Shown: one piece after another, positions 24,182 through 46,334 of the stretch | Layout of the letters: every line of letters begins with the position of its first letter | Numbering within the stretch: position 1 is the first letter of the stretch | Notes under the pieces: model-generated | Database searches by the model: none | Told to the model about the DNA's origin: nothing | What the model saw: the letters and a program-made list of their open reading frames with translations, nothing else | Source of the DNA: a virus | DNA length: 64,000 nt | Virus record (IMG/VR): IMGVR_UViG_3300027902_000008 | Span: 1 to 64,000 of that record | Strand: one strand, 5' to 3' | Position numbers and translations under genes: made by a program

Positions 24182-25243
24182 ATGAATATCATAGATTCGG
24201 TTAATAGCCATATAGAACATAGTTGGGAAGGATTGGATTTTCTTATCAGGGATAAGTCTAATTTTCACGCCAGAGATGTAAGTGTTGTATTTAAAAGTAA
24301 GTTTGCTAAAGATGAAACAGACCTTCGTAAATTGCATAATCTTGCCACAGAAAAGGTAGAGGGAAAATGTCTAAGAGCCTTATTTTATGACTTTCAAAAA
24401 CAGGTGGTAACTAATCCTACGGAATCTTCAGGGATTAGAACTATGGATATAGGAAACGCCTGTGAAGATATGGAAAGAGATTATTATAAGAGCTTGGGCA
24501 TATTCCAATCTGCTCATATCAGAATGTTCAATAAGGATTACCTCATATCAGGAGAAGTTGATAATCTTATTTGGGAATATGAGGATATCCTCCTTCCAGA
24601 CGGACACTTAAGCGGTAGAGTAAAAATCTGTGAACCAAGAAGATTGATAGGCGTAGAAGTAAAGTCTTTCTGGGGTTATTACGCAGAGAAAGAAATATTG
24701 GTTAATGGTATTCCTAAGTGGAATCACGTCCTTCAGGCACTAATCTACTTAGACCACTACAAACCAAACATACCATATTGGCTGTTAGTATATCTTAGCA
24801 GGGGTGGCGGAGTAGATACCCCTAATGGCAGAATGTTTGGCAGGCAATTCAAGTTGCAAATAAGCAAGTTAACAGGAGAGATATTTATAGATGGTATGAT
24901 TGTCAAGGAGTTTAAAATAGAAGACGTGTATGGCAGGTTTAAGAAAGCCCAATTCTTAATTGAGAATAATAAGTTGCCAGATAGGGATTATGTGTATAAC
25001 TACCCTAAAGATTTGGTTGAACTTAAATACAAGAAAGGAGAAATAGGCAAAAGTGCTTACGGAGATTGGCAGAATGGGAACAAGTATATCAGCGATTGGC
25101 AATGCTCGTATTGTGGGTATCTGTATCAATGTTGGAAGGATGTATTTGGAAATACAGTAAGAGGAGCACCTAAAGAGGTTTTAGGTGTAGAAACTAAAAT
25201 GGAGGCAACGGATTCCACAGATAGTGGAGTTCCGAAAGGATAG
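24182..25243 (+). CDS. Cas4-like PD-(D/E)xK exonuclease
   Basis: N-terminal Cys (KCLR), SGEVD, EVKS, QALIY and C-terminal CSYCGYLYQC Fe-S motif. Confidence 0.75.
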   Translation: MNIIDSVNSHIEHSWEGLDFLIRDKSNFHARDVSVVFKSKFAKDETDLRKLHNLATEKVEGKCLRALFYDFQKQVVTNPTESSGIRTMDIGNACEDMERDYYKSLGIFQSAHIRMFNKDYLISGEVDNLIWEYEDILLPDGHLSGRVKICEPRRLIGVEVKSFWGYYAEKEILVNGIPKWNHVLQALIYLDHYKPNIPYWLLVYLSRGGGVDTPNGRMFGRQFKLQISKLTGEIFIDGMIVKEFKIEDVYGRFKKAQFLIENNKLPDRDYVYNYPKDLVELKYKKGEIGKSAYGDWQNGNKYISDWQCSYCGYLYQCWKDVFGNTVRGAPKEVLGVETKMEATDSTDSGVPKG

Positions 25244-27173: not shown

Positions 27174-28523
27174 ATGAGGACAATTGTAACTCCTCTTTCA
27201 AAAGAAGAGAAAAAAGCAATCAAGGAAATGGCTGCAAACTCTAAGCTTTCTGATAGGGTAGATATTGTAGAGGATATCTACGGCTTTATGAAACAACCAG
27301 AAATGATAGAGGAAGCTGACATTACAGAAGAGTTAATAGATGAGTTTGTAAATGGTAAGTTTGAATATTATATTCCTATGAAACAAAAGGTAAAGGGCAG
27401 GATAGACTTCTTTAATAGGATAATGAATCATTCTTATTATGGAAAGTTTAGAGACCTTAATCCAGATGAGGGTGCTTGTATTCTATTGGATATGTTGAAT
27501 GCCTTTTATAAAGAGAAGAAAGAGCAGGAGAAAGACGGAGGGGGGAAGGGTTCTCACGATGAAGCAATGAGGGAATTTGAGGACATAATCCGCTATGGCA
27601 GGGAACTCTTTGATTTGCTTGATGACCCTTGGTTCAGAAAACTTATGGAACAACCTGAATCTGGATGCGGTAGTGGTCAAGATAAGAAACCAGACCAACT
27701 TCCTCAAATGGTTAAAAATATGGTTGCAGGTATGGGTAATGTTATCCATATGTATGAGTTATCAAAGAGATTGGAATTTACCATAAGGGCAAGCAAAAAG
27801 GGAAAATGGAATGAAGTTCCTTTCCCAGATAACGGTATGGATATCAGCCGTATGAAAAAGATAAGGGACATTACTCAATTACTTCCTTCTCAATTAGCTC
27901 TTGATGATGATGTCTTCCTTAAGAAGTTGCTGAGCAAAGAACTACTCAAAAAGAAGTATATGCAAAGACAGGAAAAACGGCAGATACTTTATATGATTGT
28001 AGATAGCAGTGGCAGTATGTCTGATAACGTATTAAAGAATATGATGAAAATAGATGTATGCAAGTCTGTAACTATAGCATTGATGAAAAAGATGATAGAG
28101 AATGAAGATTTCTTCTATTTTAGATGGTTTACAACAGGAGTAAGTCCTTTGCATAAGATTAAAACTAAAGAAGAGGCAATGGACTTTTTGCCAAAATTAG
28201 TTTATGGGCAGAATGCAGATGGAGGAACTAATATACAAAATGCAATAAGGGTTGCTACTGAAGATTTGAAAAGTAAGCAACTTGAACATTGGGATTTGGC
28301 TGATATTCTCTTGGTAAGCGATGGAATTGCTGTTGTTAATGTAGAGGAATGTAATAAGATGCTTGAAGGAATAGATATGCACACTATTATGATTACACAC
28401 GAAAAGCTGGATAAGAACAATGAATTTCATAGTAATATGATTCAGATGTCAAAAAACTTTATGATGACTAACTGTTATGATGAAACAGACGTTGTGGAGA
28501 TAGCAAATATTTTTACTAAATAG
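27174..28523 (+). CDS. VWA-domain protein (ViaA-like partner)
   Basis: MIDAS motif DSSGSM, GGTNI, LVSDG; adjacent to the MoxR ATPase. Confidence 0.88.
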   Translation: MRTIVTPLSKEEKKAIKEMAANSKLSDRVDIVEDIYGFMKQPEMIEEADITEELIDEFVNGKFEYYIPMKQKVKGRIDFFNRIMNHSYYGKFRDLNPDEGACILLDMLNAFYKEKKEQEKDGGGKGSHDEAMREFEDIIRYGRELFDLLDDPWFRKLMEQPESGCGSGQDKKPDQLPQMVKNMVAGMGNVIHMYELSKRLEFTIRASKKGKWNEVPFPDNGMDISRMKKIRDITQLLPSQLALDDDVFLKKLLSKELLKKKYMQRQEKRQILYMIVDSSGSMSDNVLKNMMKIDVCKSVTIALMKKMIENEDFFYFRWFTTGVSPLHKIKTKEEAMDFLPKLVYGQNADGGTNIQNAIRVATEDLKSKQLEHWDLADILLVSDGIAVVNVEECNKMLEGIDMHTIMITHEKLDKNNEFHSNMIQMSKNFMMTNCYDETDVVEIANIFTK

Positions 28524-29603
28524 GAGAAGATAATGAACGAAAACGTTAAAAACTTTGCTGATAATCTTAACAATCTTATAGCAAACTCTAAATCAAGGGA
28601 AGAGGCAATGGGTAAGCCTTATCTTGAATTGTATGAAAGTGATAGAATGTATAAAAACATCTTTGTTATTTCAAGACAATGGAAGGATACCGAAATAAGT
28701 ATTGAAAAAGAAAGCGGAAATTATGAGAAAAAAACTATTAAAGCAAGATGGGGATTTAAGGTATTATCTAAAGAAGATAAGAATAAGATGATTACTTTTG
28801 CTTTCTATTTTGGTGATGTAGATAATAATGATGACTGGTGGAATAAAAGAAAAGGAGGCACAATAAAGATACCAGTTTCAAAGGAAAAGTTTGAAGAACT
28901 TGTTAAGGTAATGGAGTCTTTTGCAAACGCAGCACCAGATGAATTAACTTACTGCCTTCAAGATTATACTAAGTTTTTTGATAAAAAAACGCAACTTCAT
29001 TATGGTCAGGCAACAAAGCAGATGGAGGTTAAGACTGTCAAATTGAATAAAAAATCAATGAAAAAACTTAAAGAATGGGAGGATAAAAATGGAAACTCAA
29101 AGAGAAAAGATAATGGATGAGATAGAGTTTGGGGATTTTGTTTTAAAGTATGAAGAAGAGATAAATAAGATTCAAGATATGATTAGGCAGCCATTTGAAA
29201 ATGAAGTTAATGCCATTGAAAAACAAATTGGTAATTTAAGTGCTAAGATGGAATTTATATCTTGGTGTTTGGCACGAGCTAAAGAACTTCTTATAAATGC
29301 ACAACACAGGGCATTAATACCAAAGAGAAAAGATATTACTGATACTGATAGGCGTTTGGCTCTTGATTTTAGCACTTCCAAGGAAACATTGCTTGTTAAC
29401 TGGCTTGAAGGTGTAGATGAGAAAATAGGCAAATATCTTGATAAATTGCAAAGTGTTCTATCAACAGAAAGAGCCATATATGAGAAGGCAGGATAAATGA
29501 AAAAGCATAGAATATTGTATCAGTTAAAGAAGACAAGGTTTCTTAATCCAAAAGTTAGGAGGGGTGGTAATGTTAAAAATAGACGAGATGTGGAAGGAGG
29601 GGT

Positions 29604-30011
29604 ATGCCAAGCGGAGTCTACATTAGGACTGCATATCACATAGAGATAAACAGGGAAAGCCATAAAGGGATAACTTCGGCAAATAAAGGTAAGTTTGGCG
29701 ATAAAAGCTCAAAATGGAAAGGGAAATTTATAAATCATAATGGTTATACTATGGTTTATTGCCCAAACCACCCATATGCTATATCATCAAGAGTGTATCA
29801 ACATCGTTTAAAAATTGAGAAGTGCATTGGAAGATATTTATTACCTGAAGAAGACACGCACCACTTGAATGGAATAAAAACTGATAACAAGCTTAGAAAT
29901 CTTATGGCATTTTCTAACCACTCTGCTCATATAAGATTTCATAAAAATCCTAATAATGTTAAAGCAAGAGAAATTATTTTTAATGGGAGGAAGTATGCTA
30001 AAAATAACTGA
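29604..30011 (+). CDS. HNH homing endonuclease
   Basis: YQHRL...HHLNGIKTDNKLRNL; MPSGVYIRT NUMOD-type N-terminus. Confidence 0.85.
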   Translation: MPSGVYIRTAYHIEINRESHKGITSANKGKFGDKSSKWKGKFINHNGYTMVYCPNHPYAISSRVYQHRLKIEKCIGRYLLPEEDTHHLNGIKTDNKLRNLMAFSNHSAHIRFHKNPNNVKAREIIFNGRKYAKNN

Positions 30012-32029
30012 AATGTTCGCATTCATAGCGGAAAATAAAGAAGGAGAAGGAGTTATGGGTGTAGGTAGTCCAATGGGTCTTGTGCCTTTGGTTGGTGCTG
30101 ATATGACAAGGATTAAGAGCCTTTATCCCATAGCCTTAGATGTTAGCAAGATAACAGGAATACCTTTCAGGGTGGTTAAGTTTACCAATAGACAAGATAT
30201 TACTGAAGAGGTTAAAAATGCGTATAGTAATGAAAAAAGGTGATTTTAGATTTGGTAAATCACAAAACGGAGTAGTGATAGTATTCAGGAAATCTATACT
30301 TGATATAGAAAGGTCTGGATTAAAGTATGAAGACCAAGACGTATCTACGCAGTGGTCTTGTGAAATTTTGAATGGAAAGATAGGTATGGTTCATTTGGAG
30401 GTTTGCTGGGATAAGTTTAATGAAGCTGTTATCATTCCTTTTGATGTCAAGGAGCCTGAGATAAGAGTTATATGTAGGCAGGTGGCTACTGATAAAAGGA
30501 TTAACTTCGCAAATGTAGATTTTCTTGAAGAAGCAGTTGGGGGGATTAGTAAGGGATTATATGCTGAAGTTAATAGAAATCAAGTATTAGATTGGCTTGA
30601 TGCTGAAGATTCTGGTGCATTTATGAATATCTGGTTTAGGAATAATCCTCAAAGCACTTAGGAGATTAATATGGAATTTACTGTTGATGATTATATTTTA
30701 GGTATGTGGTTTGCTGAGGCTCCTAATGGAGACAACTGGCAAATGACAATAATCAAGAGAGATGGTAAGTGGTTAGGAGAATATAGATTCAGATATAAGA
30801 AAGATGATAAGGTATGGCATTCAAACGATAGGAAAAGTTTCTATAACTTTAAAATACCAGAAGAAGAAACTGAAGAGGAAGTATTAAAGAAAATGGAAGT
30901 ATTTTTTGATGTTATCAAAATACAATATCCAAGGGGTGAGTTTATATCAATAAAAGGAGACTTTAATAAGTTTATCTTTAGAATGGCACAAGAGCCTTGG
31001 TTTAATATAAAGAAAATATCTCAGGAAGATTTTGAAAAGGAATATGGCAAGGAAGGAGGGCAAGATGGTGAAATATAAATATGTTCCATTAAAGTCTTTA
31101 TTTAAATCCTATTCTAAAACTCTAATATGGATTTTAAATACTTTGCTTCAATCATTACTTTATTCAATAGCACAAAAACAGGTAACTCTATTTTTTATGG
31201 CTTTTGGATTAGGAATGATGTTATCTGATTATATGTGCGAAAGATTGCATAGTAATGAATGGATAAGAAGGCATATTGATGATGAGTTTAATAAGGCTCT
31301 GCTTCTAATTGAGGCAGAAAAGATAAAGAATGGAGACTAATATGGAAACATTTCATAGTGAACACGCCTTTGAAATTAAGAAAACCAAAGAACAATTTGG
31401 CTTAACGTTTTCTAAGGGTGCTTGGGAAATGATGATGAGTGCTATAGTTCATTGGTTAGGAAAACAAGTATTTGACCACTGGGCTACAAAACATTTGAAA
31501 ATAAAGATAGTTATTGATGGAGAATACAATCCAGAAGAAAAGCCCAAAAAAGGAGGGGACAATGGTAAAGAAAATTGATTTTAAAAATTACATTGGAGAA
31601 GGTGCTGTTAAGATGGAGGAAGCAGATGGCACAAGGAGATGTAGATGTGGTAATAAGATTCTCAAAGGTGAAAAACATACGGTTATTTATTCTCCAAATG
31701 GAAGATTTCAACCAAAAAGATATAACTTCTGTAGACAATGTTCTGTAGGCTTGCTTATTGCTGAGAGCCAGAGGTTATTTGATATAGAAACTAAGATGTT
31801 TGGACAAGGAGGGGCTTGATGTCAAGAATTAAAGCCAAAAATAGAGGAAAGTGTCCTTATTGTGGAAGTATTGGATTCTGGATGTCTAAGTCAAAACTTG
31901 CTTGTGCAATACTCAAAATGATAGGATTCGGCAGTAAGAAGTCTATTTATAGTGATGGAAACTTCTCTAAAGAAGAGATGTTTGCCATCTATGAATACTT
32001 AAGAACCATACATTCTTCATAGGAGAAAA

Positions 32030-32890
32030 ATGAAGACTTTTTTGTTTGAGCCTATACTTAATATACCAGAGCAGAAGATTGGTAAATGGGAAATAAAGCA
32101 TAAATTAATTAAAGCAGGGGAAGAGATAACGATTGTATCTGTTCGTGATGCTATATTTAGTGGTAAGAAATCTCAAAAAGCTATTGTTGATAATCCAATT
32201 ATTGTCCATCAACTTTATGGAGACGGCGGTTTATGGATGTCAGATAGCCCACAAGAAAATGAAGGGCAAAGAGATATAGTAGAGAAATGCAAAGGTAATG
32301 TTTTAATCGGTGGCTTAGGATTAGGTTATATAGCCTCTATGCTTGATAGAAAGAAAAATGTTAAATCTATAACAGTAGTTGAGTTAGAGAAAGATGTTAT
32401 AAGCCTTGTATGGAAACATTTAAATTTAAAGAAATCTGAAATTATTCATATGGATTTATTTGATTATCTTAAAAGCACCAAAAAGAAGTTTAACTGGGTT
32501 TATTATGATATTTGGACTCCAACAGGAGAAGATATACTTTATACTCATATTAGACCTCTGAAGACATTATCTAAGGGCAAGGTTCCATTTAAGCATATTC
32601 TTTGTTGGTCTGAAGCCACTATGTTAGGTCAGATGATGTTAAACTTACATACTACTATACAAATAGGATATGATAAACAACTGGGTATTGTAAGATTATC
32701 TGAAAAGGAGTTTCAAGATTACTACCATCTTAGTAGGACTACTTGGGCTTATTATAATTGGTTCAGGCAAATGAAACCAGATAATGACTTTGCAGTAATA
32801 ATGGCTAAACATTATGTTTCTACCTATACGGATTATGATGAGTGGATTAAGATTTGGGGTAAATGGGATAAGAAGGAGGTGAAATTATAA
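32030..32890 (+). CDS. SAM-dependent methyltransferase, spermidine-synthase-like fold
   Basis: VLIGGLGLG, ITVVE, YYDIW motifs. Confidence 0.75.
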   Translation: MKTFLFEPILNIPEQKIGKWEIKHKLIKAGEEITIVSVRDAIFSGKKSQKAIVDNPIIVHQLYGDGGLWMSDSPQENEGQRDIVEKCKGNVLIGGLGLGYIASMLDRKKNVKSITVVELEKDVISLVWKHLNLKKSEIIHMDLFDYLKSTKKKFNWVYYDIWTPTGEDILYTHIRPLKTLSKGKVPFKHILCWSEATMLGQMMLNLHTTIQIGYDKQLGIVRLSEKEFQDYYHLSRTTWAYYNWFRQMKPDNDFAVIMAKHYVSTYTDYDEWIKIWGKWDKKEVKL

Positions 32891-33207
32891 TTTAATTAGC
32901 ACTCTATTTCAGAGAAGGGCAGGAAACTTTAAGAACTACATCATAATGAAAGCCACGGATTCCTGCCCTTACTAATTTTAGGAGGTTAATATGGTGAAGC
33001 CAAATGAGAAATTCCATTCCTGTGATTGTGATATGAGATATATCAGAGAAGGAGATAGCACTGAAACCATCAAGGCATTCTTTCAGGCACATCCTTTTAT
33101 GCTTGGTTTTTTAACTGGATTTATTTTTAAGAAAGGAACGGATACTTTTGCAAAGATTCTCCAAGAAGTTGCAGAAGAAAATTATAGAAAGAAAGGAGGC
33201 TGGGGTA

Positions 33208-33690
33208 ATGCCAATAGGAGTGTATAAGAGAACCAAAAAGCATTTAGCGAGATTAAAGAAGCAAATATTGAAATATAGTTTTTCAAAAAGTGGTAGAAAA
33301 CTATCTTTTACTTCTCGCAAGAAACAAGCTAAAACTATGTTGGGACATACAGTTTCAATAGCCACCCGTAATAAAATCAGAAGAAAGCTTCTTTTGAAAG
33401 ATGGAACAAGAAGAATCTATAATGGTTATGTTAATGTGTATGACTCTAAGCATCCAAGAAGGAGAAGGGTGTTTGAACATCATCTTATCATAGAGAAATA
33501 TATTAGAAGATTAATAAGGAAAGGTGAGGAAGGGCATCATATAAATGGCATTAAAACAGATAACCGTCCTCAAAATTTGATGTTATTTCGCAATAAAAGT
33601 GCACATACAAGGTTTGAAAATAAATTATTATTAAAGAAATCACCGATTAAGAAGTCAGATATTATATTTGATGGAAGGCTATTGCCTTAA
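33208..33690 (+). CDS. HNH homing endonuclease
   Basis: MPIGVYKRT, FEHHLI...HHINGIKTDNRPQNL; paralogue of 29604..30011. Confidence 0.85.
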   Translation: MPIGVYKRTKKHLARLKKQILKYSFSKSGRKLSFTSRKKQAKTMLGHTVSIATRNKIRRKLLLKDGTRRIYNGYVNVYDSKHPRRRRVFEHHLIIEKYIRRLIRKGEEGHHINGIKTDNRPQNLMLFRNKSAHTRFENKLLLKKSPIKKSDIIFDGRLLP

Positions 33691-33744
33691 AAAGTATCCA
33701 ATGAGAATTATGGTAATCCCAAAGGATGGGGAAGGAGATAGTAG

Positions 33745-33879
33745 GTTAGATTCTGTTCAGTTAGATTATGTTTTGGTAGATTAAATTGAGTTACTTTTAA
33801 TTTCTTTGTGTTGAATTCTGTTATTTTGTTTTGTGTTGAGTTTAGTTAAGTTGCGTTACGTTGTATTAAATAAAGTTGG
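33745..33879 (+). repeat. Pentamer array 1, 27 x DTT-NN
   Basis: gttag attct gttca gttag attat gtttt ggtag attaa attga gttac ... gttgg; period of exactly 5 with no indels. Confidence 0.9.
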
Positions 33880-33910
33880 AGAAAGGGCAGGTGATAGATT
33901 ATGTAAATAT

Positions 33911-34045
33911 GTTGAGTTAATTTAAGTTGGTTTCGGTTGGATTAGGTTAAGTTAATTTCGGTCAAGTTAATTTCAGTTCAGCTTTGTTGTGTTAGCTTAA
34001 TTTCTTTTTGGTTCTGTTAAGCTAATTTTGGTTGGGTTGTGTTAT
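33911..34045 (+). repeat. Pentamer array 2, 27 x DTT-NN
   Basis: gttga gttaa tttaa gttgg tttcg gttgg attag gttaa ... gttgt gttat; ends just before the RBS of the RAMP-like gene. Confidence 0.9.
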
Positions 34046-34064
34046 ATCTAAAGGGAGGATACAA

Positions 34065-34682
34065 ATGGTGAAGCAAAGTCCAGTAAAGGCAGTTGTTTTA
34101 AATGCAATAGATGTAAAATCTTTCAAGGTTTCAGTTGAAGGTATGACTCCATTTATCTCTCATAAATTTAGTGAGAGAAATATGAATCAAATGGAGGAGA
34201 AGCAAAGAAAGGAAAATACAAAAGAAAGGAAAGCGAGAATATCTATTGAAGATGAAGTTGCGGATTGTATTCATCGCTTAGATAACGGAAAAGTAGGTTA
34301 TCCTACTGATGCTTTTTATAATGGTATGCGTGAAGTAGCTCCATATCTTACTAATATGGATAAAAAACTTGTTCAGGGTTCAGTTAAGGTTTCTGGTTCA
34401 GACGGTTGTCCGTTAGTAGAGATTAAACACTCTAAACAGGTAACACAAAAAGATTTTGTTAAACTATCATCTGGCGTTGCTGATGTTAGATATAGACCGA
34501 GATTTGAGGGATGGAGTTGTGAACTTTTCATTAGATACAACGCTGCCCAAATTTCTCCTGAACAGATTATCACCCTTATAAATCTGGCTGGATTTCATAG
34601 AGGAATAGGAGACCATAGACCAGGTTCCCCAAAAAAGCCAGGAGATAACGGGATGTATAGAGTAAAAGAAACTGTAAAATAG
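34065..34682 (+). CDS. RAMP/Cas7-like protein associated with the pentamer arrays
   Basis: GGGAGG RBS before ATG 34065. N-terminal strand VSVEGMTPFISH, helix YPTDAFYNGM, thumb-like VRYRPRFEGWSCEL and C-terminal Gly-rich loop AGFHRGIGDHRP...GDNGMYRV match the RAMP layout. Fold inferred, not searched. Confidence 0.65.
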   Translation: MVKQSPVKAVVLNAIDVKSFKVSVEGMTPFISHKFSERNMNQMEEKQRKENTKERKARISIEDEVADCIHRLDNGKVGYPTDAFYNGMREVAPYLTNMDKKLVQGSVKVSGSDGCPLVEIKHSKQVTQKDFVKLSSGVADVRYRPRFEGWSCELFIRYNAAQISPEQIITLINLAGFHRGIGDHRPGSPKKPGDNGMYRVKETVK

Positions 34683-34697
34683 GCAACTGAATTTTTG

Positions 34698-34847
34698 TTT
34701 ACATTAGGTTTTGTTCGGTTCTGTTGCTTTTGGTTGGTTTCAGTTCCATTATTTTCATTTAAGTTTTGTTGTTTTAAGTTCTGTTGGGTTGAGTTACGTT
34801 TTGTTTCGTTGGGTTACGTTCATTTCATTTGGGTTTTTTTGGGTTAA
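34698..34847 (+). repeat. Pentamer array 3, 30 x DTT-NN
   Basis: tttac attag gtttt gttcg gttct gttgc ttttg gttgg ... tttgg gttaa; all 30 units have TT at positions 2-3. Confidence 0.92.
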
Positions 34848-34849
34848 GT

Positions 34850-34886
34850 GGGCAAGGGTTCAGAGATGGACTCTTGCCCTGTTTTT
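34850..34886 (+). terminator. Hairpin plus U-tract at the 3' end of array 3
   Basis: GGGCAAGGGTTC-AGAGAT-GGACTCTTGCCC 12-bp stem (2 G-U pairs) followed by TGTTTTT. Confidence 0.7.
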
Positions 34887-34906
34887 AAGTTTTTAAGGAG
34901 GTATAA

Positions 34907-35404
34907 ATGGTAAAATATAAGGCAAGAGAAGGTTCAATATTTAATGACGAACAGGCAAATATCTATGGTAAATGTGTTGAAAAGATAGAGCAGGAAAAAG
35001 GGTCTGTTAAGCCTTTAGATGTTGTTGAGGAAGGGGAAAAGACAGAATCTCCTTTACACGAATACTTTGATTGGGATGATAAATCTGCTGCTGACAAACA
35101 TAGATTACAACAAGCGAGGTATTTGCTTAATCATTTGATAGTTGAGATTACGATTGAAGGTAAATCTAAAGACCAAAATGCTTTTTTCAGCGTAGATATT
35201 GATATAGAGGGTGGTAATAAAGGTTATCTGTCTTTAGGAAAAGCTTTATCTATTCCAATATACAGAGAGCAGGTTTTGGATGTTGCTTTGCGTGAATTGC
35301 AATATTGGCAAGATAAGTATAAAGACCTTAAAGAATTAAGCCTTATATTTATAGCGATTAGGAAGATGAGACAGAAGATAAATAAGAAAAAAGGAAAGCC
35401 ATAA
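34907..35404 (+). CDS. Partner protein of the RAMP-like gene (unknown function)
   Basis: AGGAGG RBS; motif SPLHEYFDWDDKSAADKHRLQQARYLL; sandwiched between arrays 3 and 4. Confidence 0.65.
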   Translation: MVKYKAREGSIFNDEQANIYGKCVEKIEQEKGSVKPLDVVEEGEKTESPLHEYFDWDDKSAADKHRLQQARYLLNHLIVEITIEGKSKDQNAFFSVDIDIEGGNKGYLSLGKALSIPIYREQVLDVALRELQYWQDKYKDLKELSLIFIAIRKMRQKINKKKGKP

Positions 35405-35412
35405 TTTTGTAA

Positions 35413-35507
35413 GTTAGGTTGAGTCGTATTACGTTGGGTTTTGTTTGTATGTGTTGGTTTTGGTTATATTTAGTTCTGTTTTGTTGTGTTGGGTTTCGTT
35501 CGGTTAT
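35413..35507 (+). repeat. Pentamer array 4, 19 x DTT-NN
   Basis: gttag gttga gtcgt attac gttgg gtttt gtttg tatgt ... gttcg gttat. Confidence 0.88.
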
Positions 35508-35712
35508 TTAATGAAGAAATGACAGGGAGGAAAAATGAAGTTCAAAAGAGAGTTTTTAATAAGTATTAAGGCAGAAGCGAAAACAGAATTTGGAATCCAG
35601 ATGATAGAAGAATCAATTTCTGTAATGTTAAACGCTTGGGTATTACATCATCGTAAAGCAAGAGGAAAATCTTCTATTATAAAATTCAATATGATAAAAA
35701 AGGAATGTTAAG

Positions 35713-36075
35713 ATGAGCTGCAAATTCAAAGACCCACAAGGCTATTGCGAACAAACCAACGGAGGTGGTTCTATAAAGTGCAAGGATAGAAGGCACTATT
35801 GCAATGAGGAGATAGATGTGCATACTTTAAAGGGTGAATGGCTAACAAGAAGGGTCTGGCTTGATGGTAAAGAACTATTCCCAGAGAGAAGCCAGAAGGT
35901 CAGAAACCATAGCCCAGATGGCTTTAATTGGAGTTACAACGGTTCTGGACCAGCCCAGTTAGCATTGGCTATTATGCTTGAATGCACAGGCAAAGCAGAA
36001 GGCTATCAAGACTTCAAATGGAAGACAATAGCCACTTTACCAAGAGCAGATTTTGAGATAGAATTTGAGTTATAG
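35713..36075 (+). CDS. Conserved hypothetical (DUF6166-like)
   Basis: RNHSPDGFNWSYNGSGPAQLALAIM motif. Confidence 0.65.
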   Translation: MSCKFKDPQGYCEQTNGGGSIKCKDRRHYCNEEIDVHTLKGEWLTRRVWLDGKELFPERSQKVRNHSPDGFNWSYNGSGPAQLALAIMLECTGKAEGYQDFKWKTIATLPRADFEIEFEL

Positions 36076-36188
36076 GAGGATAAATGAAAAGGTTTTGGAT
36101 TGAGGTGTTTATAAAATTCTTATTGGTTATAACAATCACTTTTACATTGGCTATTTTAATAGTGAAACATAGTAAATAAGGAGAATAA

Positions 36189-36512
36189 ATGAGGCTTATT
36201 AAAATACCATTCCCAGTTATGGATATGGTGCCATTTCCAGACTCGGAAGAATTAGAAGTCTTTACTGCTGATAATGGGAAAATAGGCATATTAAAGTCAA
36301 TTGATAATACTCCTAAATGGGGTAAGTTAAAGCACGTTTCTATCTCAAGGTCAGACCGCTATCCTTCTTGGGAAGAGATACTTGAGATTAAAGAGATGTT
36401 ATTTGGGGATATAGATGTAATGATGGTTATGCCAAAGAAAGAGGATTATGTTAATGTGCATAAGAACTGTTTTCATCTTTGGCAAACACCTGAAAGATGG
36501 GAATTACAATAA
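36189..36512 (+). CDS. Conserved phage hypothetical protein
   Basis: HVSISRSDRYPSWEEI...YVNVHKNCFHLW motif common in phages. Confidence 0.65.
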   Translation: MRLIKIPFPVMDMVPFPDSEELEVFTADNGKIGILKSIDNTPKWGKLKHVSISRSDRYPSWEEILEIKEMLFGDIDVMMVMPKKEDYVNVHKNCFHLWQTPERWELQ

Positions 36513-36541
36513 GGAGGCTAATGTGGAATTAAGGGAAATGA

Positions 36542-39500
36542 GTGGTAGATTTAATACCCAAAGAGATGCAAGAAGAATCATTTAGGATAGGAAAGAAAAT
36601 ACACGATTTGATGATTGAATTTCTTGAAGATAAATCTGTGCCTCTTGAAAAAGGTTTATCTAATATTGAAAAGTTGGTAAACGCAAAAACTTCTGTTGGA
36701 ACAATTAAGGCTACTATACTTTTTAATTCACTTATGTGTAATATCGCTGATTTATTGTGCGGAATATATTATAAAGATGAAGAAAGCGTGATAAAGTTTA
36801 AAAATCAATTAGATGAAGTTTTTGAAAGCGTTAAAGAGAATTGTGTAAAGTTGTATAAGATGAGAATAGAGGAAGAATTAAAAAATAAGGGAAGTAGTGG
36901 TATAAATTAGGAGGTGAATGTGAGATGTGATGACTTAATTTATAACAAGCCTTGGCTCAAAAAACAAAAGTGCAAAAAGTTCATAGTCCGTCTTTATGAT
37001 GGATTTGACTATGAATGGATTGATATTACTAAAGCCTTATCCTTGAAAGAAGCAATGAAGGTATGGCGTAAGAAGACAAAAGACGGCATAGAAAAATATA
37101 AATATGACCATATAGACTACTTTGATGTATTCCCAGCTGATACTAAGATGGTCTATAGTAGGAGGTGAATATGAATAAGTGTCCATATTTCTCTGTTTAT
37201 CATAATGGAGGTCATTGTAAATGCGTTCCAGATGAATGTGGTTGTGATGGCAATATCTATTCCTGCGAAAACGTAATGCTTAGAAAGTGTTATGAAGATG
37301 ATTTATGGGAAGATGGGATAAAGAGCAAATTAAAGGTAATAAAGAATATCATAATGAGGAGTCTTTGGTAGGAAGGAGATACCAATGAGAAGGAAGAATA
37401 GCTTTGAAGATGGTCGTTTTAAAAAGGGTTTTGACGAAAGAAGAAATACATCTAAAAGCACCTTTGAGAGTTATGATAAGCGAAGAAATTTAAACAGAGA
37501 TTCATTAGGCAGGTTTTGTGCGATAGGAGCATACTATGGTTAACTATCAGGCATACGGAAACACACCTCTTTCAGAATTATTCGGTAAAGAGAACGCAGA
37601 GAAGCTACTTAAGGGTATGAATCTCTGCAAATCCATAGCTGTTAAATTAGGAGCTGAATATAATCCACCTTACATCTGGAATAAGAATATGCCAGATAGT
37701 TGGTGTAAGATTATAGCCACCGCTGTTATAGATAAAGTAGACGCAGATATTAACTGGAAGCCAGATGAAGCATTTATAGATAAGTTGAGGAAGGAGTTAA
37801 GAGATGTTTGAGTTTTTCAATCCCAAAAGAAGAGAATTAAGCAGGGTAAAGTCTTGGTTTATAAAACCGCATAGGGTAAGGCAGATATACACAAGACCAG
37901 ATGGTTCTAAATACCCTGATTGTTGTGATTGTCAAAAGGTATTTGAATATGGTGATTTAGCCTTCTATTGCATCACTTCTCCTATAAGGATAGTTGGATA
38001 TTCTGCCGTTGGAAAACTATGTTTTAAGTGCGGGATTATAAGGCTGGCTAAGATAACTTCCAAGAATCAACTTTCTCAATTACAAATGTTAGAATTAGAA
38101 TACAAGGGAGCATAAGATGAGAATAGCGATTAATCACGAAAGAGCTGGTATCATTTTCTTTAAAGGAGGTTATCACGCATATTGGATTCGGTATAGCAAT
38201 GGCTTGAAGTATATAAATGATAAATATAAGAATATGTGGTGTAAGCCAAAGTTTGAGAAATGCGACTTAAGACCATTAATTAAAAATGGTATCGTAGGTC
38301 ATTTATAAGGAGGTGAATATGCCAAATGAATTGTTTATTCATTCCAGATGTTGTGAAGCTCATTGGGAGTTAGTTGTGGTAGGCAATAAATATGAATTAC
38401 AATGTGAAAAATGTGGTAAACCAATAGGAAATAGTATTAAGATTAAGGGTCCCAATATGTCAAAATGTGGGTGTGAAATCTGCAATAGAAAACGTATAGC
38501 AAATTCAAATTAGGAGTAAACGATGAAATTTAAGGATTACTTTGGCGAGAAGCAATGTGATAATATAAGGAAGCAAATTGAAGAAGCATTTGAATGTGAT
38601 GAAGCTGTGTTTATCATCATAGGAACCATAAAAGGAGATAAAAGAGATTTAACCGATTCTTATATGGGTGTTTGTGATAAATGTGTATTACAGGCTGTTG
38701 AATATTCTGTCAAAGATGCAAAAAAGAAAGGTTTATTGGTGGATGAAAAATTAAGTTGTTTTGGAAGGTTCAATTGGAATTAGGAGGAAGTAATGGGAGA
38801 GTGTAAAACGTGCTATTTCCACGAAAAGGGTTGGTGTGATAAATTTAACTTCCTAATAAAGATGAGACCTAAAGGACGTTGTGATTCTTACCACAATAAC
38901 TATGATATTGACTTTGTTATAAAATGCAGGAGGAAGAAGAGATGAGGAATTTAGAATATGCACCAAGATATAGTGCAAAATATAAGTTTTGGCATAGTAG
39001 TCGCATTGAATATAAACAAAAATATATGCAATTTGAAAAGAATAAAATCAAGCATTGTTTACAACAACAAAAGTGTTATGCTGAAAATCCAGAACTTTAT
39101 TTAGAAAAGAATAAACGCTGGAATAAAGAAAATGCTCAAAAGCATAATGAACAAAGTAAGAAGTCTTATCATTCAAAAAGGAAGGAGTAAGATGAAAACT
39201 AAAGCGATAACTTGGCAAATACATATTCAAAAAACAAATGGGAAATGGATACCAGTATGTGCAGATTTTGGTCTTGCAATACCAGATAAATTGATAGAAG
39301 AAATAGGTTCTTGGTTATCTAAATGGTATGATATTAACCCAAATTATATGTTTAAAAAAAGGGAGAAGAAATGAAATATAATTTTTATCCTTTTGATTAT
39401 AAGAACTTTCTTATTGTAAGGGGTAATAAGTCTGTAATTAAAACAAAAGGCTATCCTATACCAGAAGATATCGGTTTAGAATCTAAATATCTTAAACAAA

Positions 39501-43917: not shown

Positions 43918-44048
43918 CTGGATAAAGTTTATATTGGGGATTATTTTTACAGCCATAGGTATATCTTTATATGCTTTGTTCCTATTCGTGGATTCTATAA
44001 TATTTGGGATAAGAAGCGGTGCAAAATATTTCTGCGAAGGAGGTGAAT

Positions 44049-46334
44049 TTGCTTATAAAGGAGTTTGAGCAAAAGAAGGCAGAGCTTCGTAGCCACCTTA
44101 AAGACTATCTTCAAATGATGGGTAGGAAGTTAGATAATAATTCTTGCCAATGCCCTAATGGTGTAGAGCATAAGCACGATGATGCTCATATGTCCTGTGG
44201 TATCACGGATGACGAGATGAACTTCCACTGTATGATGTGTGATGCCAAGGGAGACATCTTTAGTGCTGCTAACTACATTGAGAATAAGCCACTTGTGGGA
44301 GAAGAGTTTATAACAGAGAACTTTATGTATTTGGCTAAACTCTTCAATGTATCTTACGAATTGGAAGAGATAAGCGAAGAGGAAAAGCAGATACAAAAGG
44401 TTTATCTGATATATGACAGAGCTAAGGAGATACTCAAGAAGAATTTTGTGGTAAGCAAGGATTGTAAAGAATATGCCAAAAAAAGAGGCTGGGAGAAGTT
44501 AGAGAATGATTTTGAATTTGGTTCTTGCGAGAGTTATGACAAGATGATAGGTTTGCTTGAGAAAGAATTTGATAGGCAGTCTTTGTTAAAGGCAGGTATT
44601 TATCACAAGGACTTATTCCAAGATAGGTTTATTATTCCAATAAGAGATACAAGTGGTAGGGTTTGTGCCTTTGGTTCACGTTCTATGGCTGACCAAGGTA
44701 GGTATATCAATTCCAAGACAAATCTAATTTATGACAAGTCAAGCACGCTTTATAATCTTAATAGTGCAAGGAAAGTTAGCACTTCTGTATATTTAGTGGA
44801 AGGCTTTGCTGATTGCCTGACTATGATTAAGCACGGCTTACAGAACGTTGTTGCTGTAGGTGGCACGTCCTTTACAGCCAAGCAGTATGAATTGTTGATT
44901 AGGAACAGAATCAGGAAGGCGGTCTTATGCTTTGACAATGATGAGGCAGGTATACAGGCTCTTGATAAGGCATTAACCAAAGTGATAGGCAATAAGAAGG
45001 ATATGCTTATCTATATTAAGGAGATTGTAGATGCCAAAGACCCTGATGAGTTTATCAATAAGTTTGGTGTAGATAAGTTCGTAGAACTTTCAGAATTAAC
45101 TGTATTTGAATGGCGATTAAGGAAATTTGCCTTTGCACATTCCGAAATATTAAAGAGCCAAATCCTTGAAGATATTATCAATGAGACTTCCTATATTGAA
45201 AGGGATAGGATGTGTGATAAGTTTTCAAAGGAAACAAATATAAGACTTGAAACAGTCCAGAAGGAAGTGCAAAGACTTGAACTCATAAAGAAAGAGCAAT
45301 TAGATATTACTACAACCGATATTATCAAAGAAGAAACCGAATTTGAGAAGAAGGTCAATGAATTTGAAGAATGGGTTTTCTCACGCAAGACAGAATTATT
45401 GGGTATGCCTTGCGGTTTCCCAAGGTTAACAGAGGCTTTAGATGGTATACAAAATGGCTTATATTTGGTAGGTGGAAGACCGAATATTGGGAAAACATCT
45501 TTTAATCTACAGCTGGCTTATAACCTTGCCTTGAATAATGAAAAGGTTTTCTGTTTGATATGGTCAATAGATGATAACCTGAAAAAAGTTATACCAAGGT
45601 TAGTAGCTACTGAATGCGGGATACCAATTAACATAGTGTCTAATCCTGTCCATAAGTTAAAACCAGAGTATGGATATGCACCTGAGTTGATTAAGGATAT
45701 GATGAATAAGAGAGAGCAAGCCATTAACCGCTTAAAATCACTTTCTAAACGTTTCCTAATCAAAGATATAAGTAGTGGTAATAGCGTAGAAGCAATTGAG
45801 AAATCTGTTATGACTTGCAGGGCTATTACCAAAACAGAAAATATGCAGTTAGTATTGGTAATAGACAACTTTCATAAATTGACTACGGATAAATATATGA
45901 CAGACACAAGGGCGAAGTTTACCTATCTGTCAGAGCAGATTAAGAGAATATCAAATGTATATGATGCTCCTGTAATATGCACAGTTGAGTTGAGAAAATC
46001 AGAAAACATAAGACCGCTGGAAGATGATATCAAAGAAACAGTTGATTTGGTATATGATGCAGATTGCATACTCTTGCTACATAATGAGGTGCATAGGTTA
46101 GGTGAGTATGAGAGCAAAATCTTCTTTGTGGATGAGCAGGGTAATAAGAAGCCCATATTGGAAGTAGATGTTTGTAAGAACAAAACCAGTTCTTTTAAAG
46201 GAGAATTATTTTTTAGGTTTTATACAGAGTTAAGCAGGGTAGTAGAGTGCGACCAATATGAATCACGAAAGATAAAAGGTATCTTATTGGGGATTCCAGA
46301 AGAAACTGCACAGAAAGGCAGGGAAAATGGGTGA
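44049..46334 (+). CDS. DnaG-type primase / DnaB-type helicase fusion
   Basis: Zn-binding N-terminus, DRFIIPI, YINS, TOPRIM VEGFAD and FDNDEAG, KDPDE; helicase GRPNIGKT, IDNFH, YDAD. GGAGGTG RBS supports a TTG start at 44049. Confidence 0.92.
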   Translation: MLIKEFEQKKAELRSHLKDYLQMMGRKLDNNSCQCPNGVEHKHDDAHMSCGITDDEMNFHCMMCDAKGDIFSAANYIENKPLVGEEFITENFMYLAKLFNVSYELEEISEEEKQIQKVYLIYDRAKEILKKNFVVSKDCKEYAKKRGWEKLENDFEFGSCESYDKMIGLLEKEFDRQSLLKAGIYHKDLFQDRFIIPIRDTSGRVCAFGSRSMADQGRYINSKTNLIYDKSSTLYNLNSARKVSTSVYLVEGFADCLTMIKHGLQNVVAVGGTSFTAKQYELLIRNRIRKAVLCFDNDEAGIQALDKALTKVIGNKKDMLIYIKEIVDAKDPDEFINKFGVDKFVELSELTVFEWRLRKFAFAHSEILKSQILEDIINETSYIERDRMCDKFSKETNIRLETVQKEVQRLELIKKEQLDITTTDIIKEETEFEKKVNEFEEWVFSRKTELLGMPCGFPRLTEALDGIQNGLYLVGGRPNIGKTSFNLQLAYNLALNNEKVFCLIWSIDDNLKKVIPRLVATECGIPINIVSNPVHKLKPEYGYAPELIKDMMNKREQAINRLKSLSKRFLIKDISSGNSVEAIEKSVMTCRAITKTENMQLVLVIDNFHKLTTDKYMTDTRAKFTYLSEQIKRISNVYDAPVICTVELRKSENIRPLEDDIKETVDLVYDADCILLLHNEVHRLGEYESKIFFVDEQGNKKPILEVDVCKNKTSSFKGELFFRFYTELSRVVECDQYESRKIKGILLGIPEETAQKGRENG

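Follow-up and report, generated by a model that had tools for sequence, protein, structure and literature searches.

The region 33745-35507 of the DNA stretch analysed here is, with a probability that we put at roughly 85%, a phage VIPR (Viral Interference Programmable Repeat) locus built on a GUU scaffold, in which guide-RNA arrays are placed around a vipr gene. The stretch, hereafter the window, comprises positions 1 to 64,000 of the IMG/VR virus record IMGVR_UViG_3300027902_000008, a genome of 92,940 bases whose completeness is estimated at 100% by CheckV. We assign the locus to VIPR because the gene standing between its second and third arrays matches the Vipr protein of Escherichia phage SUSP1 and has a fold similar to that of Cas7/Csm3. 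All elements lie on the + strand, in the order A1, A2, vipr, A3, candidate accessory gene, A4, and the region runs from the first base of A1 to the last base of A4:

33745..33879, + strand: array A1, 27 D-T-T-N-N units in a single register, predicted vrRNA guide region
33911..34045, + strand: array A2, 27 units
34065-34682, + strand: vipr, 205-amino-acid Cas7-like RAMP protein, predicted vrRNA-binding filament subunit
34698..34847, + strand: array A3, 30 units, downstream of vipr and upstream of the candidate accessory gene
34850..34879, + strand: strong stem-loop with an adjoining T-run, resembling a terminator at the 3' end of A3, which stops 2 bases before it
34907-35404, + strand: candidate vipr-accessory (vap) gene, 165 amino acids, directly downstream in the locus
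35413..35507, + strand: array A4, 19 units

VIPR, first described in 2026 and proposed to be older than CRISPR, is an RNA-guided reader of DNA that uses a gapped code. According to the text of the preprint on it (bioRxiv 10.64898/2026.04.26.720920), phages encode a stand-alone RAMP protein, Vipr, and vrRNAs made of 9-16 YNNGG units, in which a GGY triplet alternates with a hypervariable dinucleotide (NN), with a tail at the 3' end. Double-stranded DNA is read through the NN pairs as NNx-NNx, one base, mostly at codon wobble, being skipped per unit, and in nature the system is directed against competing phages and satellites. In SUSP1, one vrRNA lies upstream of vipr and three downstream, and free guide RNAs of ~100 nt are found; consensus variants (NNNGG, YNNNG, NNNNG) are published there as well, and a 'related consensus' is allowed. 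In the SUSP1 complex, as described in the text of 10.64898/2026.04.26.720927, one Vipr protomer covers each unit: H17 and D177 read G1, G2 lies between R138 and W178, the Y3 pocket includes R179, and a pocket in the thumb bundle accepts the one skipped target base. Seven VIPR types are mentioned in the published texts, and non-canonical arrays (21 clusters, 6,318 sequences) with cores such as GAC/NN, CAC/NN, WGT/NN and TGH/NN are reported in bioRxiv 10.64898/2026.10.21.760802.

The arrays of the window were read as three bases followed by NN, with one fixed register per array, which gives 103 five-base units in total. Position 1 of the unit is G in 67 units, T in 22, A in 13 and C in 1. T occupies position 2 in 99/103 units and position 3 in 100/103 (information 1.70 and 1.78 bit), and positions 4 and 5 are near random (0.05 and 0.08 bit). 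The triplet is GTT in 62 units, TTT in 21 and ATT in 12, the remaining eight units having other triplets. When the complete genome was scanned for five GTTNN units with at most one mismatch, 21 matches were found on the forward strand, all within 33830-35505, against none on the reverse strand and none in a backwards control. Similarly, a scan of the whole genome with all 64 fixed triplets gave no period-5 array besides A1-A4, and TT in register over 20 units reached a maximum of 20 on the + strand vs at most 13 on the - strand. Tandem Repeats Finder reported array fragments only, with periods 10-25. Tandem five-base units combining a fixed trinucleotide with a hypervariable NN, a feature of VIPR, are therefore present beside vipr. 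A first-pass annotation, made from the letters of the window, had already extracted the four NN strings, and all of its dinucleotides agree with ours (27/27, 27/27, 30/30 and 19/19 units), as does the equal length of A1 and A2, at 27 units each. It had also described the strings as mutually unrelated, and indeed no pair of them is more alike than unit-shuffled strings. Its likening of the arrays to distinct spacers is roughly right if four arrays are counted as four spacers, but several guides may be contained in a single array.

The protein encoded between A2 and A3 is, judging from its sequence, a Vipr homologue. A profile built from it and eight relatives matched a sole solved structure, PDB 36pp_D ('SUSP1 Vipr protein'), with an E-value of 8.8e-17 over profile positions 23-191, and the single sequence alone reached 8.5e-6 against the same chain. 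Its AlphaFold2 model (predicted local distance difference test, pLDDT, 80.5) retrieved 88 PDB chains at E<=0.001 with Foldseek, the best being Csm3/Cas7 of type III CRISPR effectors (8do6_E, 4.9e-7). In the single-sequence alignment, the G-loop of the window protein, GIGDHRPG, aligns with GVGDWRPR of SUSP1, and the RNA-contact residues R138, D177 and R179 of SUSP1 correspond to R, D and R, and W178 to H; at the positions of SUSP1 H17 and K33, H and K of the window protein match the ESCO50 residues (MAFFT). The protein belongs to phrog_4652, a family of unlisted function, and has no Pfam family (17 open reading frames, ORFs, around the locus were scanned). Its relatives are many: 6,245 were found at E<=0.001 in a set of 1.84 billion representative proteins. 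A small stand-alone RAMP protein homologous to SUSP1 Vipr thus sits among the arrays.

By analogy with SUSP1, the arrays would be transcribed into vrRNAs made of (D)UU-NN units, and each five-base unit would be held by one Vipr protomer, with the fixed triplet buried and the NN pair exposed. The resulting filament would read double-stranded DNA as NNx-NNx, skipping one base per unit, and would silence the gene to which it binds in a competing phage or satellite. It is from this analogy that we infer that the arrays are transcribed and processed, that Vipr binds a scaffold with U-U, that the skip rule extends to this clade, and that targets exist. The first-pass annotation had proposed that each string specifies a target either contiguously or as NN-x-NN-x, and that the latter spacing could skip codon wobble. 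Since the protein that defines VIPR adjoins the arrays, the gapped form of this proposal gains support from homology and from the published mechanism, but not from any direct match to a target.

The closest solved relative is the type II VIPR of SUSP1 (KT454805; vipr at 28474-29061; PDB 36pp), whose small phage RAMP protein is homologous to that of the window. Both loci have five-base units combining a fixed triplet with a hypervariable NN, flanking vipr on the vipr strand, both have a small gene directly downstream of vipr, and neither has a CRISPR array or other cas genes at the locus. They differ in scaffold (D-U-U in the window vs GGY), in array length (19-30 units vs 9-16), and in the G-loop, where W178 is replaced by H. 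Unlike SUSP1, whose relative ESCO50 has a conserved tail after each array, the window has no detected conserved 3' tail or pseudoknot. BLASTP did not link its accessory gene to vap1 of the SUSP1 type, and its system has no known target. Four other phages, Mycobacterium phage Quico, Gordonia phages Pipp and ODay, and cyanophage Cy-LDV1, encode Vipr proteins annotated 'hypothetical protein' with 25.7-28.8% identity to that of the window (E down to 7e-20). They share the accessory gene with it (E 1.6e-12 to 7.9e-18), and their arrays adjoin vipr on its strand, as in the window, but they have a GGC scaffold and GC-rich genomes (0.61-0.67). As for the non-canonical arrays of 10.64898/2026.10.21.760802, they resemble those of the window in that a non-GGY trinucleotide alternates with NN beside a Vipr-like fold, and differ in having ~10 repeats, as far as the text of that preprint indicates, instead of 19-30.

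The resemblance to class 1 CRISPR effectors concerns the protein. Cas7/Csm3 and the window Vipr have the RRM, G-loop and thumb fold in common (Foldseek E 4.9e-7 to 1e-4, template modelling score ~0.5), and in both families protomers lie along the guide RNA, whose bases they turn outwards with a constant period. This period is 5 with three guide bases hidden in VIPR, vs 6 with one hidden in Cas7/Csm3. Moreover, and unlike class 1 CRISPR, the VIPR guide is written as a genomic tandem repeat, without repeat-spacer array or other cas genes. Accordingly, the hallmark of class 1 systems, a repeat-spacer array with a multi-gene cas operon, is absent: no long repeats, and hence no CRISPR repeat-spacer array, were found in 32000-37500, and the 119 ORFs scanned gave, besides the RAMP gene of the locus, a single PHROG match described as 'CRISPR/Cas system associated'. 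This match is a 353-amino-acid ORF (24182-25240, phrog_1706, E 1.5e-14), located 9 kb upstream of the VIPR locus.

We examined whether the GUU scaffold exists elsewhere by scanning IMG/VR for six exact GTTNN units. This gave 123 stretches, mostly plain microsatellites, and a subset with diverse NN and several arrays. In eight IMG/VR loci (L010, L013, L050, L055, L073, L075, L090 and L091), an ORF homologous to Vipr, the homology being direct or through L010/L013, adjoins the GTT arrays. A GUU scaffold hence recurs beside Vipr homologues in other low-GC phage contigs. De novo triplet scans identified GGC in Quico, Pipp, ODay and Cy-LDV1, and GGT in the Felixounavirus ESCO50, i.e. GGC or GGT arrays in 5/5 of the phages examined among 80 GenBank phage records with a Vipr match. 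Searches for related loci by Vipr alignment gave one locus from 9 sequences and ten from 20 sequences; among the latter ten, which are further IMG/VR Vipr loci, arrays were GGC or GGA in 6/10, and no clear array was seen in 4/10. GC content was 0.30-0.50 for GTT loci and 0.56-0.67 for GGC loci.

In a tree of 17 Vipr proteins, GTT loci fall on either side of the deepest split, which is also the best supported of the deep ones (98/95), in a sample biased by the choice of GTT loci through the GTT scan. No simple covariation was seen between the G-loop triplet and the scaffold, the GTT loci having DHR, EWR, ELR or RFR. We propose, tentatively and with less than even confidence, that GUU-scaffold VIPR is a distinct and recurrent form in low-GC phages, used by Vipr lineages that stand on either side of the deepest branching. 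Three of the GTT loci, L055, L073 and L075, retain the E/D-W-R G-loop, by which G-G is read in the solved structure, and on this proposal the choice of scaffold would depend on contacts still undescribed. We propose equally tentatively that A1-A3 would each be either a single very long guide (54-60 bases over 80-89 bp) or a staggered set of guides. A GTT/GUU core is not named in the text of four VIPR-related preprints (including 10.64898/2026.04.26.720920,.720927 and 2026.10.21.760802); their full core lists sit in figures, outside this text comparison, and the GUU core may therefore already be on record.

Two of these loci have arrays punctuated by other motifs. In L073 (2290-2895), the arrays are split into guides of 6-12 units by GGCNGAT(G). 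L013 (- strand view, 2280-2735) also has 6-12-unit guides, with a punctuation motif of ~24 bases, of which 11 bases (GTTGGAGAAAG) are common with the stretch following A1 in the window (33875-33885). In L050 (2280-3160, + strand), GTT arrays, ~19-22 units long, are interspersed with a conserved hairpin of ~50 bases, which is present six times and whose reverse strand resembles a tRNA T-arm (GGTTCGATTCC); Rfam and ARAGORN give no match for it. The vipr gene of L050 (3835-4398, - strand) is on the strand opposite to the arrays, and the layout is like that of repeat-spacer or ribozyme-punctuated arrays. Finally, two IMG/VR Vipr loci, L440 (3323-3481) and L441 (3196-3297), have period-5 GGA arrays, in a register that is provisional; GGA puts a purine in the third scaffold position, whose pocket in the solved structure is said to be closed to purines.

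The gene directly downstream of A3 is conserved with vipr. By BLASTP, its product matches the protein encoded beside vipr in Quico (1.2e-14), Pipp (1.9e-13), ODay (1.6e-12) and Cy-LDV1 (7.9e-18), and homologues also stand beside vipr in L055, L073 and L075, so that the two genes travel as a conserved pair in seven other loci overall (E 8.8e-9 to 7.9e-18). No BLASTP similarity was found to the SUSP1-type vap1 of ESCO50. Because the accessory gene is homologous to those of the actinophage and cyanophage clade and unlike vap1, we group the window with this clade and not with type II. The protein belongs to phrog_15946, a family of unlisted function, and has neither a Pfam family nor a PDB sequence match. 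Its model (pLDDT 76.7) has no fold match in the PDB at E<=0.001, and in BFVD it retrieves uncharacterised phage proteins only.

The ends of the arrays lie close to other signals. A3 is followed by a hairpin of 13 pairs, 7 of them G-C, and then by TGTTTTT; the 73-base fold that contains it has an energy of -24 kcal/mol (z -3.48). The 31-base spacer after A1 is unstructured (z +1.02). A G-rich motif, AGGG(C)AGG, occurs within ~20 bases after each array (33881-33900, 34050-34059, 34849-34858 and 35524-35531), and after A2 and A4 it is also the ribosome-binding site of the next gene. From the end of A2 there are 4 bases to the Shine-Dalgarno-like AAAGGGAGGA and 19 bases to the ATG of vipr, and from the end of A4, 27 bases to the ATG of a 58-amino-acid ORF (35535-35711). 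Neither an Rfam family at E<=1 (23,771 bases from five loci) nor a tRNA by ARAGORN (seven loci) was detected.

Next, targets were searched with a position-count scan modelled on one described in the text of 10.64898/2026.10.15.759431. As a control, three GGY arrays were called in SUSP1 (KT454805) and compared with a satellite region of E. coli NZ_CP012379, found by its 13-base att repeat. With one base skipped, two guides match at 20/22 and 27/30 NN positions, scores that 0/200 shuffles reach for either, and with 0, 2 or 3 bases skipped the same two guides stay at the level of shuffles. Mismatches are confined to the final one or two units, those adjoining the tail. The one-base-skip rule is thus reproduced for SUSP1 against the E. 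coli satellite.

Applied to the window, the same approach gave no target, and this belongs to the observations that weigh against a working VIPR locus. Against its own genome, full-length A1-A4 guides with skips 0-2 reached an identity of 0.50-0.61, the level of shuffles. At skip 3, only the arrays themselves matched, and sub-windows of ten units gave 15-16 of 20, again as shuffles. When 49 GTT-type guides were compared with ~1 Mb of phage loci, nothing rose above shuffles either. The search that the first-pass annotation had suggested, allowing 0-3 wildcard bases between dinucleotides, accordingly failed, no gap size exceeding shuffled strings in the own genome or in the ~1 Mb of phage loci. 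Public collections were then scanned with exact-pattern seeds of 7-9 units under the one-base-skip rule, every match being extended over the whole array:

IMG/VR, A3 units 17-24: 4 matches
IMG/VR, A4 units 13-19: 58 matches
IMG/VR, A1 units 17-23: at least 113 matches
IMG/VR, A2 units 19-25: at least 120 matches
IMG/VR, A4 units 9-16: 6 matches
JGI metagenomes, A3 units 17-25: 4 matches
GTDB genomes, A4 units 11-19: 1 match

None of the matches listed from IMG/VR, JGI metagenomes and GTDB is a target, identity outside the seed being at chance level (mean 0.26-0.27, maximum 0.47). On the same side stand the third SUSP1 guide and three ESCO50 guides, which found no match on the NZ_CP012379 satellite. 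Other points concern the locus itself. The canonical GGY scaffold, which the solved structure explains, is absent, position 2 being U in 99/103 units, and position 1 is not G in 36/103. The stretches 3' of A1, A2 and A4 fold no better than shuffles, and a conserved structured tail like the SUSP1 pseudoknot was not seen. Finally, in composition the NN pairs resemble codon positions 1-2 of the genes of this phage (+0.7 bits over uniform) no more than they resemble plain base composition (+10.5).

The failure to find a target for the window guides is a weak negative, from a thin search. The seeds span about one third of the units, two of the A4 seeds included the last units, which are possibly non-guide by the SUSP1 control, and the collections searched are public ones, outside the source habitat. 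Moreover, the results with the third SUSP1 guide and the ESCO50 guides indicate that the scan misses real guides if the right target is absent. The first-pass annotation would have given up its target reading had no gap size given matches above the shuffled background in a well-sampled metagenome from the same habitat; our searches, which covered a small part of each guide outside that habitat, do not amount to this.

Some of the observations against a working locus could also be taken as the marks of a decaying or idle VIPR cassette, whose arrays drifted from GGY to U-rich in a low-GC genome and guide nothing now. We regard this as improbable. The degenerate position 1 and the lack of a visible tail and of a target fit such a cassette, as does the fact that the scaffold follows the GC content of the loci. 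However, drift would break the register of the units, and the intact pattern of the arrays therefore speaks against decay: T at positions 2 and 3 is retained by 96-97% of units, and the register is unbroken over 95-150 bases in each array. In addition, the vipr ORF is intact and its aligned contact residues are kept, and GTT arrays occur beside intact Vipr genes across the deepest split of the tree.

The proximity of the arrays to expression signals raises another possibility, namely that they are cis-regulatory leaders, tracks to which Vipr would bind on its own mRNA, where a filament growing across the ribosome-binding sites, or as far as the terminator, would tune vipr and its neighbours, the NN coding nothing. 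A2 and A4 indeed stop 4-17 bases before the Shine-Dalgarno-like G-rich motifs of the next genes, and A3 stops 2 bases before the terminator-like hairpin. But hypervariable and unrelated NN in four arrays suit a guide rather than a binding track, the arrays of L050 cannot be leaders since they lie on the strand opposite to vipr, and SUSP1, with the same layout, yields free guide RNAs of ~100 nt (text of 10.64898/2026.04.26.720920). We regard a purely regulatory function as still less probable than decay. The two roles do not exclude each other, and because A2 and A4 almost reach the ribosome-binding sites of the next genes, there is room for an autoregulatory role added to that of guide.

Binding sites of TRAP are (G/U)AG triplets separated by spacers of 2-3 bases, in a leader RNA bound by the TRAP ring, and primases of the T4 type have GTT start sites. 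A TRAP-like triplet-repeat RNA switch, or a DNA element such as GTT primase start sites or an origin, would share with the arrays the period of 5 (a triplet and a 2-base spacer) and, for the primase, the presence of a primase-helicase gene (44019-46331) and of arrays on one strand only, but we consider such Vipr-unrelated elements highly improbable, because neither explains arrays that accompany a Vipr homologue in 8 other loci and whose triplet shifts to GGC, GGT or GGA with the Vipr lineage; besides, the triplets here are GTT, TTT and ATT, not (G/U)AG, and no TRAP family was found in the PHROG or Pfam scans of neighbouring genes. These elements, and translation leaders without structure, had been considered as candidates, and were dropped after the match to PDB 36pp_D.

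As a VIPR locus, the region adds nothing to the principle of these systems. It provides a natural example of U where the solved complex holds G in the scaffold, and its distinctive points are the GUU scaffold, the length of its unbroken arrays (19-30 units), the absence of any tail that could be recognised, and membership in a clade common to GGC-type actinophage systems. GUU examples recur in low-GC metagenome phages, which are poorly sampled by NCBI-based surveys. They may be of use for understanding how Vipr selects its scaffold, for designing array finders that go beyond GGY, and for obtaining orthogonal Vipr-guide pairs. At the level of annotation, the assignment accounts for the 'hypothetical' families phrog_4652 and phrog_15946 and for four long 'intergenic' regions.

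The genomic context is that of a phage. PHROG matches identified head-tail, primase-helicase, recombinase and ligase genes, and the nearest GenBank phage proteins have less than 40% identity. All genes of the window are on the + strand, and the arrays occupy the gaps around three of them.

Two HNH endonuclease genes are present upstream of the locus, at 33148-33690 and 29604-30011 (PHROG E 2e-13 and 2.5e-18). The first stops 55 bases before A1, and no evidence was found tying it to the VIPR system. HNH proteins are among the published vap types, and in both ESCO50 and SUSP1 the VIPR locus likewise has a homing endonuclease gene upstream. Further downstream, the segment 59629-63157 contains two glucosyltransferase-like genes (phrog_842, beta-glucosyl-HMC-alpha-glucosyltransferase) together with a gene for a nucleotide-sugar epimerase, and this set hints at a possible sugar modification of the phage DNA.

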